From assembly GCF_963539245.1 (NCBI RefSeq), contig NZ_CAUTJW010000010.1: DNA of 64,000 nt; one strand, 5' to 3'. The DNA is from Rothia mucilaginosa (lineage in GTDB: Bacteria; Actinomycetota; Actinomycetes; Actinomycetales; Micrococcaceae). Shown one piece after another: positions 2,847-11,720 of this stretch. The position numbers and the translations under genes were made by a program. Within the stretch, counting starts at the first letter, position 1; the number at the start of each line of letters is the position of its first letter. Under the pieces are notes generated by a model. It saw only the letters and a list, made by a program, of their open reading frames with translations, was not told where the DNA came from and did no database searches.

Positions 2847-4295
2847 ATGTCTGAACCCCAGAAGGCGGCAGCACCCACCGGTGCGCTCGACCGCTACTTC
2901 AAGATTTCCGAACGCGGCTCCTCCATCGCCGCAGAATTCCGCGGCGGCCTCGCCGCGTTCTTCGCCATGAGCTACATCGTGGTGCTGAACCCCCTCATCA
3001 TCGGCCTCGGCAAGGACGCATCCGAACGCACCCTCGGTATCGCACCCGTCGCGGCTGTGACCGCGCTGGTTGCCGGCGTGATGACCATCCTCATGGGTGT
3101 TATCGCCAGGCAGCCCTTCGCCATGGCGGCTGGCCTGGGCGTGAATGCGCTGCTCGCCTCCACCATTGCCACCACCCCGAACCTGACCTGGGCAGACATC
3201 ATGGGCCTGGTCGTTCTTGCCGGTCTGATCATGACCGTTCTGGTGCTCACCGGCTTCCGTACCGCGGTGTTTGAGGCGGTCCCCGAGTCGCTCAAGACCG
3301 CGATTGTGGTCGGTATCGGCTTCTTCATTTCCTTTATTGGTCTGGTCGACTCCGGTATTATCCGCCGCATGCCTGACGCTGCCGGCTCCACCGTTCCGGT
3401 GACCCTCGGCGCGGGCGGCCACCTGCTCGGTTGGCCCACCCTCGTCTTCCTCTTCGGCCTGTTCTTCACCATCGCCCTGTTCATCCGTAACGTGAAGGGC
3501 GCGATTCTGTGGGGCGTGCTCGCCTCCACCGCGCTGTCCCTGATTCTGGAGGCGGTTGTCCCCTCCGGTTCCGTGAAGGAGTCGGCAACCGGCTGGTCCC
3601 TGAACGTGCCCTCCTTGGATGACATGAAGTTCACCACCCCGAACTTCTCCCTCATCGGTTCGGCTGACCTGTTCGGCGCGTTTACCCACATTGGCCCGCT
3701 GGCTGCTTCGCTGCTGGTGTTCACCATTCTGCTGTCGGTCTTCTTTGACGCGATGGGCGTTTCGGTCGGTCTTGCCGCCGAGGCTGGCACCATGAAGGAC
3801 GGCAAGGTTGAGGACATCGACAAGGTCCTGCTCGTGGACGCTTTTGGTTCCGTTGTTGGTGGTGGCGCGTCCGGTTCGGCGAACCAGATTTTCGTGGAGT
3901 CCGCTACCGGTATTGGTGCGGGTGCACGCACCGGTTTTGCGAACATTGTGACCGGTGTGCTGTTCCTGCTGGCGATTTTCATCTCGCCGCTGGTCACTAT
4001 CGTTCCCTTCGAGGCGGTTGCTCCGGCGCTGGTCGTGGTCGGCTTCCTGATGATTCGCCAGGCTGTGAATATTGACTGGACTGACTGGGGTCTGGGTATT
4101 CCGGCGTTCTTGACCATTATTTTCATGCCGCTGTCGTACTCTATTGCGAACGGTATTGGTGCCGGCTTCGTGGCTTACACCTTTATTCGTCTGGTGCAGG
4201 GCCGCGGCAAGGATGTGCACTGGCTGATGTACCTGGTCTCCGCAGTGTTCGTGATCTACTTCGGTATGGGCATCATTAACGGCTGGACTAGCTAA
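2847..4295 (+). CDS. NCS2/AzgA-family purine permease, copy 2 (tandem paralog)
   Basis: The C-terminal 482 aa of ORF 2544..4295 align along their full length with copy 1 (GALDRYFKISERGSSIAAEFRGGLAAFFAMSYIVVLNP). The upstream 101 codons are Arg/Pro-rich and non-protein-like, so the start was set at ATG 2847. Confidence 0.9.
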   Translation: MSEPQKAAAPTGALDRYFKISERGSSIAAEFRGGLAAFFAMSYIVVLNPLIIGLGKDASERTLGIAPVAAVTALVAGVMTILMGVIARQPFAMAAGLGVNALLASTIATTPNLTWADIMGLVVLAGLIMTVLVLTGFRTAVFEAVPESLKTAIVVGIGFFISFIGLVDSGIIRRMPDAAGSTVPVTLGAGGHLLGWPTLVFLFGLFFTIALFIRNVKGAILWGVLASTALSLILEAVVPSGSVKESATGWSLNVPSLDDMKFTTPNFSLIGSADLFGAFTHIGPLAASLLVFTILLSVFFDAMGVSVGLAAEAGTMKDGKVEDIDKVLLVDAFGSVVGGGASGSANQIFVESATGIGAGARTGFANIVTGVLFLLAIFISPLVTIVPFEAVAPALVVVGFLMIRQAVNIDWTDWGLGIPAFLTIIFMPLSYSIANGIGAGFVAYTFIRLVQGRGKDVHWLMYLVSAVFVIYFGMGIINGWTS

Positions 4296-4438
4296 GTCCA
4301 ACAGTCTACATATTTGCTGAGGGCAGGTTCCTGAGGCGGCTGAGAACGTAAGTTTTCAAGCTGTCGAAGGACCTGCCTTTTGTGTATCTGGTTCGCTCAT
4401 GCACGTTCCTTATCGTGCCCGGGCGCGGGCGAAAATTC

Positions 4439-4476
4439 ATGGCAGAATCATTCCGTTTCCGGTATGATTCTGCCAT
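4439..4476. repeat. Hairpin repeat, copy 1 (near-identical to the terminator hairpin at 5887-5924)
   Basis: ATGGCAGAATCATTCCG-TTTC-CGGTATGATTCTGCCAT has 17-nt arms with one mismatch. The same arms recur at 5887-5924. Confidence 0.85.
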
Positions 4477-5122
4477 GATGTCCGTTCAAGAGTATGCCCA
4501 AGAAGCTCAGGTTTCAGAGCGAAGCGTGCGCGCCCGCCTAGAACGCGGAATGCTCCAGGGGCGTAAATTGGGAAGCCGCTGGGTTGTCGACGCTCTCCCC
4601 GCAGCGCACCGCAGTAATGCTGGCCGCCCTATTTCCTTTGAATCATTCAACTCCCTGGCTCGCTACTGTGACGGGCAGTCGTCTGTTCTATCTGCTGAGG
4701 AACGCCGCAGGGCAAAAGAACGCGCCTCAGCAATTCAGGAACAGGGCTCAAGCTCCATTGAGCGCTACCGAGCCCGCCGCGGGCTGAAAGTGCATCATCT
4801 GCAGGCTCCTCCCGCTGAGATTCCGGCAATTTTGGAAGACCCTGCACTCTCCCTTACCGGCATTAGTAGCGATATTTCGCAGGTGTACGGCTCAATGGTG
4901 GATGCATACGTTTCAAGCCGGGACTTAGAGAACATCATTTTTCTCTACAATCTTCTTCCAGCTTCCGCGGATTCAGCGAACGTCATCTTGCGTGAATGCG
5001 ATGAGCCGCCCCATATTCTTCCCCTGCACGTGGCGGTAGATCTTCTAGATTTGGGGGATTCGCGAAGCACCGCTGAGGCAGAGCGTATTCTTCAAGATTC
5101 TGTTTTCAAGGAAGCGTCTTAG
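4475..5122 (+). CDS. Excisionase/MerR-type HTH DNA-binding protein (candidate antitoxin/regulator of the downstream nucleotidyltransferase)
   Basis: The N-terminus MSVQEYAQEAQVSERSVRARLERGMLQGRKLGSRWVV matches the excisionase-family HTH pattern. The stop lies 2 nt before the next ATG. G+C is visibly lower than in the flanks. The start is uncertain (ATG 4439, 4475 or 4478). Confidence 0.6.
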   Translation: MMSVQEYAQEAQVSERSVRARLERGMLQGRKLGSRWVVDALPAAHRSNAGRPISFESFNSLARYCDGQSSVLSAEERRRAKERASAIQEQGSSSIERYRARRGLKVHHLQAPPAEIPAILEDPALSLTGISSDISQVYGSMVDAYVSSRDLENIIFLYNLLPASADSANVILRECDEPPHILPLHVAVDLLDLGDSRSTAEAERILQDSVFKEAS

Positions 5123-5124
5123 TC

Positions 5125-5874
5125 ATGAACGCATCACCTATTTTGATTCCTGCTATTGGGGCAGAACGCGCCTCATGGCTTGGTCTGGCTGATATTTCAG
5201 AAATTATGCCGCAAGGATGGTCGTTGGCTGGCGGAAGCATGATGCGCCTGTTGGCTGCGGAACGAAGCTACGCAGGTTCTCGCTCCACCCACGATATCGA
5301 CGTTATTCTTGATATCCGCGCTTCCCGGGCGCATATTCGTCAGTTCCATGAGGCTCTTAGCAATGCCGGATTTTCAATTGCCGGGTTCAATGCATCCGGC
5401 CAAAATCACCGGTGGGTTCGCGGCGAAGCTCAGATAGATATCCTCATCCCTTCAGGGCAATCGGAGACTGCCCGCACCTATGAATATCCGGGGTTTGGCC
5501 GCCTACTAGAAACTCGTGGCGCTCAGTTTGGGCTTGAACGCACCCGTAAAGCATCTGTACTCTGCGCTAACCGCCAATTTACAGTCAACGTTCCTGATGG
5601 TTTGGGCGCCCTGTACGAGAAAGTATCAGCCCTGCTCAACAATGGAGATTCCGATAAAAGTCGACATTTCCGAGACATTATTCTTTTATCTTCGGTCCTT
5701 AATTCTCAAGAACGTCGAGATATCCTGACACTTTCTGGAAAACAGATATATCGCCTTTATGACGGTCTCTCAAGATCGATTCACGAACACACCGGCATTA
5801 TTTCTGACCGCGAGCTAGAGGTAGCCTCGCGCTTAGAGAACTATCTTGAAAAACTGCTAAAAGACAGAAGCTAA
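5125..5874 (+). CDS. Nucleotidyltransferase-fold protein, AbiEii/DUF1814-like (candidate type IV toxin / abortive-infection effector)
   Basis: The Pol-beta NTase signature LAGGSMMRLLAAERSYAGSRSTHDIDVIL (GG..., DxD) is present, and a later KVSALL...KSRHFRDIILL resembles the C-terminal AbiEii motif. The gene is tightly coupled to the upstream HTH gene. Confidence 0.55.
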   Translation: MNASPILIPAIGAERASWLGLADISEIMPQGWSLAGGSMMRLLAAERSYAGSRSTHDIDVILDIRASRAHIRQFHEALSNAGFSIAGFNASGQNHRWVRGEAQIDILIPSGQSETARTYEYPGFGRLLETRGAQFGLERTRKASVLCANRQFTVNVPDGLGALYEKVSALLNNGDSDKSRHFRDIILLSSVLNSQERRDILTLSGKQIYRLYDGLSRSIHEHTGIISDRELEVASRLENYLEKLLKDRS

Positions 5875-5886
5875 CCAAAACAAGAA

Positions 5887-5924
5887 ATGGCAGAATCATT
5901 CCGGTTTCGGAATGATTCTGCCAT
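5887..5924. terminator. Bidirectional rho-independent terminator (hairpin repeat copy 2)
   Basis: ATGGCAGAATCATTCCG-GTTT-CGGAATGATTCTGCCAT is a perfect 17-bp stem. It is flanked by AAAACAAGAA on the left and TTTCTTTT on the right, and lies between the convergent genes ending at 5874 (+) and 5963 (-). Confidence 0.85.
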
Positions 5925-5962
5925 TTCTTTTATGCCCGCACTATGCATGTGTATAAGGGGCG

Positions 5963-6558: not shown

Positions 6559-7986
6559 TTATTCAGCGATTGCGCGAGCCGGGGTGTCAGCAGCCGAAGG
6601 CTTGCCCACGTATGCGCCGCGGTACTTAGCAGCCGGGTGGGAGTCAGCAACCTTGGTGTGACCCTTACCGAAGATGTTCTCACGCAGGGTGTTGCCCTCG
6701 TACTCGGTGCGGTAGCGGCCGCGCTTCTGCAGCTCGGGAACAACGTACTCGATGAAGTCCTCGAAGGAACCCGGGGTGACGTGGTACGCCAGGTTGATGC
6801 CGTCCAGGCCGCCCTCGTCGATCCAACGCTCCAGCTCGTCAGCAACCTGAACCGGGTCACCAACGATGACCTCGCCCATGCCGCCGAGGGTGACGTGCTC
6901 AGCGATGGCCTTGCGGGTCCACTTCTTGTCCTTCGCCTGCAGGGTGAAGGGGGTCAGGAAGGACTGAATCGACTCGGTCTGCACATAGTTCAGGACCTCG
7001 TCCTCGTCGAACTGGGACAGGTCAACGCCGGACCAGCCGCCGAGAATGGTCTGTGCAGAGTCGAGGTTGATGTACTTCTTGTAGTCCTCGTACTTTGCCT
7101 TTGCCTTCTCCTCGGTCTCATCCACGATGATCGAAAGCATTGCAAGGATCTTCACGTCGTCGCGGCTACGGCCCTGCTCCTCTGCAGCGGCGCGAATACG
7201 GTCGGTCACAACGCGGGTCAGGTCCGGGCGCAGGGCGCTGATGAACACAGCCTCAGCGTGCTTACCGGAGAACTGCTGGCCACGGCTGGATGCGCCAGCC
7301 TGGAAGATCACGGGGGTGCGCTGCGGGCTCGGCTCAGTCAGGGAGATGCCGGGCACGGAGAAGTACTTGCCCTTGTGGCCAATCGGGTGGACCTTGGAGG
7401 GGTCAGCGTAGATGCCGCGCTCGCGGTCCTTGATGACTGCGCCGTCTTCCCAGGAGCCTTCCCACAGCTTGTAGCAGACGTCCAGGAACTCGTCAGCGAT
7501 GTCGTAGCGCTCGTCGTGCGGGATCTGGGTGGGCAGACCCTGGTTCTCAGCAGCCGACGGCAGGTAAGAAGTCACAACGTTGAAGCCGACGCGGCCCTCG
7601 GTCAGGTGGTCGAGGGAGGCGTAGCGGCGAGCCAGGGTGTAGGGCTGCTCGAAAGTAGCGGCAGCAGTCACGCCGAAGCCGAGGTGCTCGGTCACTGCAG
7701 CCATTGCAGAAATCTGGGTTGCGGGGTCATTCACGGGAACCTGAGCGGCACCCTCGATAGCGGGAGCGGCAGAGTTCTTGTACACGTCGTAGACGCCGAC
7801 CACGTCAGCGATGAACACGGCATCGAACAGGCCGCGCTCAAGGGTCTTAGCCAGGTCAGTCCAGTACTTGATGGTGTTGTACTCGGTTGCGCGGGAGCGC
7901 GGGTGACGCCAGAGGTCGAAGCTCTGGTGACCAATGCAGGTCATCTCGAATGCGTTAACTACGATGCGCTTCTTCTGCTCAGCCAT
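6559..7986 (-). CDS. LLM-class FMN-dependent monooxygenase (NtaA/SnaA/DszA family)
   Basis: The 475-aa product has KRIVVNAFEMTCIGHQSFDLWRHP and an overall luciferase-like pattern typical of this family. It is preceded by a SAM-IV riboswitch. Confidence 0.85.
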   Translation of the reverse strand: MAEQKKRIVVNAFEMTCIGHQSFDLWRHPRSRATEYNTIKYWTDLAKTLERGLFDAVFIADVVGVYDVYKNSAAPAIEGAAQVPVNDPATQISAMAAVTEHLGFGVTAAATFEQPYTLARRYASLDHLTEGRVGFNVVTSYLPSAAENQGLPTQIPHDERYDIADEFLDVCYKLWEGSWEDGAVIKDRERGIYADPSKVHPIGHKGKYFSVPGISLTEPSPQRTPVIFQAGASSRGQQFSGKHAEAVFISALRPDLTRVVTDRIRAAAEEQGRSRDDVKILAMLSIIVDETEEKAKAKYEDYKKYINLDSAQTILGGWSGVDLSQFDEDEVLNYVQTESIQSFLTPFTLQAKDKKWTRKAIAEHVTLGGMGEVIVGDPVQVADELERWIDEGGLDGINLAYHVTPGSFEDFIEYVVPELQKRGRYRTEYEGNTLRENIFGKGHTKVADSHPAAKYRGAYVGKPSAADTPARAIAE

Positions 7987-8104
7987 CGATTTTCCTTTCG
8001 CGAATGATCGGGGACACGATCGGGTTTGGACCCTGCACCCCGCGCGCCGCCTCCTGATGCCTTCTGCGTTCGGTGGTGGCCTTCGTGCAGGTGGCGCGTT
8101 CGCG

Positions 8105-8212
8105 CCGTACTTGCCTCATTCCGTTGAGGCCAGATCATCATCTGGGGCACCCCGCTACGGGAGAGGGTTGCCGCCCGGCTAGCCAGAGCTTAGCGCCGGG
8201 ACTCATGATCTC
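8105..8212 (-). promoter_or_regulatory. SAM-IV riboswitch in the 5' leader of the LLM monooxygenase gene
   Basis: The minus-strand RNA reads GAUCAUGAGUCCCGGCGCUAAGCUCUGGCUAGCCGGGCGGCAACCCUCUCCCGUAGCGGGGUGCCCCAGAUGAUGAUCUGGCCUCAACGGAAUGAGGC. It matches the SAM-IV consensus as I remember it almost block for block (GGUCAUGAGU..CCGGCAACCCUC..GGGGUGCCCCGGGUGAUGACC plus a 3' hairpin). Confidence 0.85.
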
Positions 8213-8385: not shown

Positions 8386-8482
8386 AAACCATCCAGAGCG
8401 ACTGAGAGACCTGGCTCCACGACGTCGCAGCAACCGGCACGGATTCTTCCGCCTCCCGGTGCTAACGCCAGGACCGATGGAA
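8386..8482 (+). promoter_or_regulatory. SAM-I-clan riboswitch (SAM-I/IV-like, no P4 evident) in the leader of the ABC importer operon
   Basis: The RNA reads CCAUCCAGAGCGACUGAGAGACCUGGCUCCACGACGUCGCAGCAACCGGCAC..CCGGUGCUAACGCCAGGACCGAUGG. It contains the S-box core blocks AUC-AGAG, GAGAGA/CUGGCUC, GCAACC and GGUGCUAA, and the P1 pair CCAUC/GAUGG. The 3' P1 strand abuts GGAAG and ATG 8488. Confidence 0.75.
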
Positions 8483-8487
8483 GTGAC

Positions 8488-11585: not shown

Positions 11586-11720
11586 AAACCATCCAGAGCG
11601 ACCGAGAGACCTGGCTCAATGACGTCGCAGCAACCCCCTCGCCAACGCACACACAGACCCCACGGTCACACAGACAGCGGCACGGCAAGCAAGGGTGCTA
11701 ATGCCAGCAACCGATGGGAG
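11586..11720 (+). promoter_or_regulatory. SAM-I-clan riboswitch immediately upstream of acs
   Basis: The 5' half CCAUCCAGAGCGACCGAGAGACCUGGCUCAAUGACGUCGCAGCAACC is nearly identical to the element at 8386. A longer P3 follows, then GGGUGCUAAUGCCAGCAACCGAUGGGAG. The 3' P1 strand overlaps the GGGAG SD of ATG 11725. Confidence 0.7.

Follow-up and report, generated by a model that had tools for sequence, protein, structure and literature searches.

A probable AbiE/MenAT-type toxin-antitoxin cassette with a predicted promoter-operator palindrome beside ychJ in Rothia mucilaginosa

What is the small two-gene cassette that separates ychJ from a gene for a purine permease in Rothia mucilaginosa, and why does it stand between two nearly identical hairpins? 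The question was raised by an earlier reading of a stretch of 64,000 nucleotides (contig NZ_CAUTJW010000010.1, assembly GCF_963539245.1; the whole stretch is called the window below), which is referred to here as the sequence-only reading. We consider it probable that the cassette came by horizontal transfer and that its two genes form a bicistronic toxin-antitoxin module of the AbiE/MenAT type. Gene 1 (4475-5122, plus strand) encodes a putative antitoxin and autorepressor of 215 aa, with an N-terminal helix-turn-helix (HTH) domain of the HTH_17 family and a C-terminal domain at residues ~55-210. Gene 2 (5125-5874, plus strand) encodes a putative toxin of 249 aa, a Pol-beta nucleotidyltransferase of the DUF1814 superfamily. 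The descriptive part of the sequence-only reading was recomputed and came out as given: the two hairpins and their coordinates, the lower G+C, the flanking genes (an NCS2 permease gene and ychJ), the A-tract and T-tract sides on the right hairpin only, which scores as a terminator on both strands, the gap of 2 nt between the end of gene 1 at 5122 and the start of gene 2 at 5125, and the motifs GGS...STHDIDV and KSRHFRDIILL in the translation of gene 2. The G+C content is 0.52 in the cassette and 0.59 in the whole window. At third codon positions (GC3) it is 0.54 in gene 1 and 0.45 in gene 2; the neighbouring genes (permease, ychJ and luciferase-like) have 0.72-0.80. By composition the segment looks foreign.

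Does gene 2 belong to a known toxin family? Existing models recognise it at their margin. Pfam AbiEii (PF08843) gives 20.7 bits against a gathering score of 22.5, over residues 32-203 and positions 15-184 of the 238 in the profile, and the AbiEii model of PADLOC matches weakly (E = 5.6e-4). There are 41 relatives, found in Rothia, Brachybacterium, Corynebacterium and Kocuria and nearly all labelled 'hypothetical'. Among the 27 that were aligned, 14 match PF08843 by themselves (E <= 0.01, best 2.4e-5), and for one relative (P0012) the PF08843 match was precomputed. Residues G37, R53, T55, D57, D59, K166, A169, R180, H181 and D184 are invariant in this alignment, and G36 is nearly so (at least 90% of relatives). 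Thereby Pol-beta motifs I (GG, G36-G37) and II (R...DxD, R53-x-T55-x-D57-x-D59) are present, followed by a Lys motif at K166 and an Asp motif R180-H181-x-x-D184 in the same order as in AbiEii and with a spacing like that in AbiEii and MenT3; the equivalence with motifs III and IV of AbiEii and MenT3 is by motif order and not by structural superposition. Motifs I-IV of AbiEii, including K173, R180 and D192, were defined previously (PMC3985639), and D80, K189 and D211 of MenT3 have been mutated (PMC7450476). The downstream catalytic lysine is K189 in MenT3 and K137 in MenT1, to which K166 of gene 2 would correspond. The phosphoacceptor loop R-x-[S/T]-x-D-x-D, with R76/S78/D80 in MenT3 and T39/D41 in MenT1 (PMC11375011), reads R53/T55/D57 in gene 2. 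The acceptor position, two residues before the first catalytic Asp, is thus the invariant T55, and it is Ser in a distant partner gene (locus L118; L numbers are our own labels for loci).

The predicted structure of gene 2 points the same way. Its AlphaFold model (AF2) has a mean predicted local distance difference test score (pLDDT) of 93.8 and a predicted template modelling score (pTM) of 0.91. A Foldseek search of the PDB with this model gave four matches only at E <= 1e-3, namely Rv1045/MenT3 (7c46, with E = 4.9e-5, and 6j7r) and JHP933, the DUF1814 protein of H. pylori (4o8s, 4ok0). Their probability is 1.0 and the TM-scores of the four lie between 0.40 and 0.47. From its motifs and its modelled fold, gene 2 is a divergent member of the DUF1814 superfamily, and the Pfam gathering score is its sole formal failure.

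What kind of protein is the partner? Weak HTH_17 and AbiEi_2 signals (the latter at residues 128-207) are all that Pfam returns for gene 1 of the window alone. Among its relatives, HTH_17 matches 11 of 11 close and 59 of 63 wider ones. AbiEi_4 is matched by 4 of the 63, and AbiEi_2 by 6 of them (E <= 0.01, best ~1e-3, weak). When the gene 1 family profile was compared with PDB sequences, Xis of mycobacteriophage Pukovnik (4j2n) was matched with E = 1.7e-6; the designed propeller proteins (Tako8) that also appeared were rejected as spurious, and otherwise the HTH alone was matched. A PHROGs search returned excisionase and recombination directionality factor families. The AF2 model of gene 1 has a pLDDT of 93.8, exceeding 95 at residues ~55-210, and in Foldseek searches of PDB and BFVD its matches were confined to residues 1-50, whose fold agrees with that of BldC, Xis, MerR and phage 'Excise' proteins. 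No NCBIfam model matches gene 1. The family as a whole is large: an exhaustive profile search found 2,612 clusters (at 50% identity) with E <= 1e-3 and 945 with E <= 1e-10, and the best 150 clusters listed are nearly all 210-240 aa long and matched along almost the full profile.

The C-terminal domain of gene 1 is also found alone. In a sister Rothia the cassette has a third gene (L113 1483-2004; also L106 4951-5187, L112, L114, L115 and L117), whose product of 173 aa is a copy of this domain without the HTH (37% identity, E = 9e-23). A half operator, TATGTT-N6-ATG, precedes this gene and an unrelated strong terminator hairpin follows it. The domain therefore appears to be an autonomous module, and the stand-alone copy supports a neutralising role for it.

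Are the two genes constantly kept together? In Brachybacterium halotolerans they overlap by 8 nt amid sugar-metabolism genes, in Corynebacterium glaucum they overlap by 8 nt between obgE and rpmA, and in another corynebacterium, again with an 8-nt overlap, they adjoin a beta-lactamase-like gene. A gene 1 relative with only 31% identity (P0056) overlaps by 4 nt with a next gene that matches the gene 2 profile with an hhalign probability of 99.8, and a second deep relative has a gene 2-type partner likewise. All gene 1 relatives whose neighbours were inspected are paired with the gene 2 toxin clade. The layout is bicistronic with the antitoxin gene first, and the linkage is kept in Rothia, Brachybacterium, Corynebacterium and deeper relatives, with overlaps of 4-8 nt outside the window. 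It persists where identity has fallen to 31% (gene 1) and 28% (gene 2). To judge from this distribution, the gene pair is conserved and mobile. The sequence-only reading had proposed a variant AbiE-like toxin-antitoxin candidate, in which an AbiEii/DUF1814-like nucleotidyltransferase is joined to an excisionase-type HTH protein and not to the classical AbiEi winged helix. This proposal is supported. The kinship of gene 2 is borne out by its motifs, its fold matches and the AbiEii matches of its relatives; the HTH is of the excisionase/MerR type by the HTH_17 and AbiEi_4 counts and by its Xis, BldC and MerR folds; and the pairing of HTH_17 with a DUF1814-type protein is, by the loci compared, kept across genera. 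In the collection of literature that was searched there is no paper on an HTH_17-DUF1814 pairing, on a toxin-antitoxin system of this type in Rothia or on any toxin-antitoxin system of R. mucilaginosa.

If gene 2 is a toxin held by gene 1, how should the cassette decay? Among the loci fetched, 39 have both genes intact, 7 have gene 1 intact with a 638-bp deletion in gene 2, 2 (L004 and L104) have this deletion together with a broken gene 1, and a broken gene 1 beside an intact gene 2 is seen in none, counts that are not fully independent as the loci come partly from the same or related samples. Gene 1 is thus broken only in two alleles already without gene 2. The 638-bp deletion corresponds to 5201-5838 of the window and is seen in L004, L051, L067, L076, L079, L100 and L104. 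Gene 2 has been inactivated independently at least four times. Besides the 638-bp deletion, an in-frame deletion of 57 bp in L083 takes out residues 53-71 and with them the R-x-T-x-D-x-D catalytic loop; the gene of L066 is frameshifted by 1 nt; and in L047 a deletion of 448 bp runs from nt 391 of gene 2 to exactly the ychJ stop, so that the right hairpin is lost too. Among intact alleles the ratios of nonsynonymous to synonymous substitution rates (dN/dS) are 0.085 (gene 1) and 0.079 (gene 2), at a synonymous divergence (dS) of ~0.25. Wherever the cassette is kept, purifying selection acts on both of its genes, and the population pattern fits a toxin-antitoxin pair.

There is a further question of concern, what are the two hairpins? 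Each is 38 nt long; they lie at 4439-4476 and 5887-5924, spaced by 1448 nt, and are identical at 35 of 38 positions (92%). The left one reads ATGGCAGAATCATTCCG-TTTC-CGGTATGATTCTGCCAT and the right one ATGGCAGAATCATTCCG-GTTT-CGGAATGATTCTGCCAT. As RNA the left one folds with -36.7 kcal/mol (z = -7.4) and the right one with -36.3 kcal/mol (z = -10.2). In the 64-kb window there are 4 occurrences of the 17-mer arm, all of them at the two hairpins, and shuffled sequences have 0.21 occurrences on average, with none of 100 shuffles reaching 4.

The left palindrome (4439-4476, plus strand) is best read as the promoter-operator of the cassette. A promoter scan gives ATGGCA-18-TATGAT at 4439-4468, that is, a -35-like ATGGCA at 4439-4444 and a -10 box TATGAT at 4463-4468, and the ATG at 4475 comes six nt on. 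There is no Shine-Dalgarno sequence before 4475, and gene 2 has AAGGAAG 11 nt upstream. A palindrome of 17-nt arms and a 4-nt loop is located at -680 to -725 upstream of gene 2 in the cassettes of Brachybacterium, Corynebacterium, R. nasimurium and others, and its register upstream of the gene 1 homologues is the same in 12 diverse loci. The cassettes in Brachybacterium, Corynebacterium and other Rothia lie at unrelated loci and have a single palindrome with no second copy downstream. Because it keeps its position at unrelated loci without a second copy, the left palindrome is taken as intrinsic to the cassette. In the alignment of the 12 sequences pairing holds at 91% of arm positions, and compensatory changes are found in 10 of 17 pairs; the covariation score was not equalled in any of 500 column shuffles, and shifting the register drops pairing to 27-49%. 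The sole systematic mismatch is a near-invariant T in column 25, which turns the right arm into CGG-TAnnAT, with the ATG following after 6 nt; the loci show TATGAT, TAGCAT, TACAAT, TACCAT and TATAAT. In Actinobacteria a -10 box before a leaderless start has this arrangement, TAnnAT-N6-ATG. We infer a leaderless mRNA beginning at 4475.

This reading also bears on the start of gene 1. The start is most likely the ATG at 4475, within the final bases of the left palindrome and not upstream of or outside the hairpin, because most of the palindromes have ..AT|G at their end, an ATG with which the conserved N-terminus M-x-S-V-x-E-Y-A begins. Starts at ATG 4439 (227 aa) and GTG 4382 (246 aa) were considered and rejected; they read through the palindrome and are unconserved.

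The right hairpin is different. Its region (5875-5931) consists of an A-tract, the palindrome at 5887-5924 and a T-tract, and the palindrome is perfect, without the -10 T. The two strands of this hairpin fold with -36.3 and -37.5 kcal/mol. It is best described as a bidirectional intrinsic terminator, which would serve gene 2 on the plus strand and ychJ on the minus strand. Its left arm varies naturally (A to G, C to T), and in the plus-strand RNA the variant positions still form G-U pairs.

Does the right hairpin exist without the cassette? The sequence-only reading had predicted an empty site, with the permease gene, a single hairpin and ychJ in a row, in related strains, and such alleles were found. 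A scan of metagenomes for the palindrome gave 59 loci, all of them this one Rothia locus: 18 are empty sites, at least 14 carry an intact cassette (spacing 1448), 6 have the 638-bp deletion (spacing ~810) and 1 has a spacing of 1391. Because all 59 are one locus, the palindrome is not a dispersed repeat; an element like a repetitive extragenic palindrome (REP) or a miniature inverted-repeat transposable element (MITE) was rejected on this ground and on that of only two copies in the 64-kb window. Contigs with identical YchJ include intact cassettes, the decayed cassette L004 and the empty sites L005, L007 and L010. In an empty allele the permease stop is followed by 47 nt, an A-tract, one perfect palindrome, a T-tract and ychJ, and the hairpin with its flanks corresponds to the right copy. 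Past the permease stop, empty and occupied alleles agree for ~30 nt before they part, which places the indel at ~4330-5875. It contains the promoter-operator, both genes and a further hairpin at 4319-4388. Since its left boundary is ~110 nt further left than the left hairpin, this hairpin is not the insertion junction. The empty alleles all have the same junction, therefore one insertion or deletion event accounts for them. Recombination of one hairpin with the other was rejected as the origin of the empty allele, whose 47-nt spacer stands in place of the ~110-nt region upstream of the left hairpin and has no significant similarity to the cassette.

The hairpin at 4319-4388 (plus strand) is G+C-rich and is followed by TTTTGTG; the fold of 4296-4400 has -46.1 kcal/mol and z = -5.6. 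It is found in cassette-bearing alleles only, inside the inserted segment. It probably terminates transcription of the permease gene, which lies upstream, and in empty alleles the permease would rely on the shared bidirectional hairpin.

Why, then, does a terminator look like the operator? The operator sequence goes with the cassette lineage: the cassettes of Brachybacterium share the arms TGGCAGAAT...ATTCTGCCA, and those of R. nasimurium and Corynebacterium have different, co-varied arms. As the operator sequence is lineage-specific to the cassette, descent must have run from operator to terminator. A sister Rothia (YchJ 79% identical) carries a cassette of 51% and 60% identity directly after the ychJ stop and in opposite orientation (L106 3493-3550; L112-L114). 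The operator of this cassette lies 20 nt away from the ychJ stop, the same spot as that of the right hairpin of R. mucilaginosa, 38 nt from the stop. The right hairpin may thus be the relic operator of an older, outward-facing cassette, which lost the -10 T, gained A/T tails and was kept as a terminator. More generally, it would be an ordinary terminator that predates or outlives the present cassette, with a stem derived from the operator or homogenised with it. In R. mucilaginosa strain 141_RMUC the right hairpin (L033 3764-3799) is identical to the left copy, the -10 T included, which suggests occasional gene conversion between the copies. More distant Rothia (L107-L111) do not give the ancestral state of the hairpin, because the order of the permease gene and ychJ differs there.

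Could the palindromes instead be recombination sites? Gene 1 together with a host recombinase, or the hairpins themselves, might mediate insertion, excision or inversion, and the hairpin of the empty allele would be the leftover site. The match of the N-terminus of gene 1 to excisionase and recombination directionality factor profiles is in accordance with this, as are the operator-like palindromes at both ends of the cassette, one of which is left in empty alleles, and the inverted cassette of the sister Rothia at the same ychJ-proximal spot, with its operator at the position of the right hairpin. However, there is no recombinase in or beside the cassette, the one shared empty junction is not a hairpin-by-hairpin product, and cassettes of other genera have a single palindrome. 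Moreover, the palindrome is confined to this locus at 59 of 59 metagenome loci, and no viral or mobile context was found. We therefore regard this explanation as very unlikely.

Another explanation is that gene 2 is no toxin but a benign or useful Pol-beta nucleotidyltransferase, acting for example on a small molecule or an antibiotic, under a MerR/Xis-like repressor. The Pol-beta fold and the GG...DxD signature are common to resistance nucleotidyltransferases, and the Pfam AbiEii score is below threshold. Against this, the best fold matches are DUF1814 toxins and not ANT or Lnu enzymes, and motifs III and IV, specific to DUF1814, and the Ser/Thr phosphoacceptor are invariant. The gene is also tightly coupled to a two-domain partner, and it has been lost repeatedly with gene 1 kept, never the reverse. 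A benign role is accordingly very unlikely. As for the claim of the sequence-only reading that an original bidirectional terminator was duplicated when the cassette inserted, which would mean a target-site duplication of a host terminator and a left hairpin with no function of its own, the 92% identity of the flanking copies, the exactly one copy in empty alleles and the A/T tails on the right only are in its favour, but it fails for the left hairpin, which in other genera recurs as a single copy at unrelated loci in the same register and ending in the ATG of gene 1, covaries with the cassette lineage, has a conserved -10 asymmetry with a -10 box and start codon, and is not where the alleles diverge (~30 nt past the permease stop and ~110 nt to its left), and the model is largely refuted and hardly credible.

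Several observations weigh against a toxin-antitoxin module of the AbiE/MenAT type and should be noticed. Gene 2 of the window itself scores below the Pfam AbiEii gathering threshold and has no match in NCBIfam; the gene 2 family profile matched no PDB chain by sequence, and the TM-scores of gene 2 to MenT3 are just 0.42-0.47. As to gene 1, a Foldseek search of PDB and BFVD with the whole model gave no significant match for the C-terminal domain, solved AbiEi and MenA-type antitoxins included; its family profile matched no solved antitoxin among PDB sequences, and the AbiEi_2 signal is weak. Gene 2 relatives were searched for in viral contigs and none was found, so that a prophage or phage origin of the cassette is not supported; no link to phages or mobile elements was found, and no defence island or prophage was seen around the cassette in the contexts read. 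A toxin-antitoxin module does not of itself account for the close likeness between the right terminator and the operator, and the allele counts are partly dependent, as said above.

How would such a toxin-antitoxin module work? For this pair we only infer toxicity, neutralisation, DNA binding, leaderless transcription, phosphorylation and a role in phage defence. By analogy with MenT1, MenT3 and AbiEii, gene 2 would most likely add nucleotides to tRNA 3' ends and so block translation; MenT1 and MenT3 are tRNA-modifying nucleotidyltransferase toxins (PMC7450476, PMC10435456). The HTH of gene 1 would bind the palindrome at 4439-4476, probably as a dimer. Since the palindrome holds the -35-like hexamer, the -10 TATGAT and the leaderless ATG, such binding would repress the operon. 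A dimer on the dyad would cover -36 to +2, an autorepression like that of AbiEi, which binds inverted repeats at the abiE promoter and regulates itself negatively (PMC3985639, PMC7319586). The C-terminal domain of gene 1 would neutralise gene 2, most likely by inducing its auto-phosphorylation at the invariant T55. That an antitoxin induces auto-phosphorylation of its toxin was shown with MenA1/MenT1, and MenA3/MenT3 have been proposed to act likewise (PMC11375011); the same route is reported for AbiEi/AbiEii in a 2026 preprint (bioRxiv 10.64898/2026.01.19.700257).

Is this then a new system? The cassette is a new sub-family of the known AbiE/MenAT system, not a new kind of system. It resembles AbiE of Streptococcus agalactiae and Lactococcus in being bicistronic, with the antitoxin gene first and the genes abutting or overlapping, in a DUF1814 Pol-beta nucleotidyltransferase toxin with motifs I-IV, in an antitoxin with an N-terminal DNA-binding and a C-terminal domain, and in inverted repeats over the promoter, which here is a predicted one. 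AbiE was described as type IV (PMC3985639) and was reclassified as type VII in the 2026 preprint (bioRxiv 10.64898/2026.01.19.700257). The differences are also clear. AbiEi has a COG5340 winged helix, whereas gene 1 has a MerR/excisionase-like HTH_17 domain and a C-terminal domain without detectable match to the solved AbiEi fold. AbiE has two inverted repeats and a 26-nt leader, whereas here there is one palindrome of 17+17 bp at -36 to +2 and a predicted leaderless start. Gene 2 is shorter and below the Pfam AbiEii cut-off, and phage defence is only a possible role of the present cassette.

MenAT3 (Rv1044/Rv1045, TakA/TglT) and MenAT1 of Mycobacterium tuberculosis (PMC7450476, PMC7205606, PMC11375011) are the other close comparison; Rv1045 is the best structural match of gene 2, and the host is also an actinobacterium. 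However, the structure-based identity to MenT3 is ~12% with no sequence-level PDB match, the tRNA target and the phosphorylation are carried over here from the known toxins, and gene 1 is neither a COG5340 protein like MenA3 nor a 7-kDa protein like MenA1. In the COG4861-COG4849 pairs, such as MenA2-MenT2, the partner is again of the DUF1814 superfamily, and their AbiEi_2/DUF2186 family (PF09952, which we take to correspond to COG4861) gives the weak, sub-threshold signal seen in the C-terminal domains of gene 1 and several of its relatives. Unlike gene 1, antitoxins of the MenA2 type exceed their toxins in size and have no HTH_17 N-terminus. Finally, residues 1-45 of gene 1 match the HTH_17 proteins MerR, BldC and excisionase in both fold and sequence, and binding to a dyad or repeat that overlaps a promoter would be a further trait in common. 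Those proteins are small and stand alone as architectural proteins or regulators, whereas in gene 1 the HTH is fused to a presumed neutralising domain of 160 residues.

Several consequences would follow for this class of systems. To the antitoxin architectures of the nucleotidyltransferase toxin class a third would be added, that of HTH_17 with a new C-terminal domain. This architecture is common yet invisible to Pfam, NCBIfam and PADLOC models, and it is therefore missed by annotation pipelines and by finders of defence and toxin-antitoxin systems. It also offers a natural test of whether unrelated antitoxins all act by inducing toxin auto-phosphorylation. The single palindrome with -35, -10 and start codon of a predicted leaderless mRNA would be an example of compact regulation. 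Empty, intact and toxin-deleted alleles of Rothia co-circulate in the human oral microbiome, which bears on the cost and benefit of the module. What seems most interesting is the size of the unannotated family, the unmatched antitoxin domain, the promoter within a palindrome and the operator-like terminator. One may go further and suppose that the pair represents a large unannotated toxin-antitoxin family of DUF1814 type, here seen mainly in Actinobacteria, whose antitoxin fuses an excisionase/MerR-type HTH to a new C-terminal domain that triggers auto-phosphorylation at T55, and whose operator has been reused in R. mucilaginosa as a terminator; this second copy might also be bound by the antitoxin, or be a site of recombination or inversion, making a locus of gain, loss and switching orientation by ychJ. 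Taken as a whole this larger scenario is possible and still rather doubtful.

Some other features of the window may be mentioned. The permease gene next to the cassette is the second of two tandem paralogous NCS2 permease genes (xanthine/uracil family) at 1029-2534 and 2862-4295; the long antisense open reading frames over both are artefacts of high G+C. Low G+C (0.44-0.46) is also found at 600-1050, upstream of the first permease gene, and ~9% of cassette-sized windows in the 64 kb match the AT-richness of the cassette, so other foreign or regulatory islands may exist. On the other side, Rfam identifies a SAM-IV (S-adenosylmethionine) riboswitch at 8102-8210 (minus strand, 92.8 bits), upstream of a luciferase-like monooxygenase gene at 6559-7986, and two SAM-I riboswitches on the plus strand at 8386-8483 and 11586-11720. 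These riboswitches suggest that a sulfur/methionine regulon adjoins the cassette.

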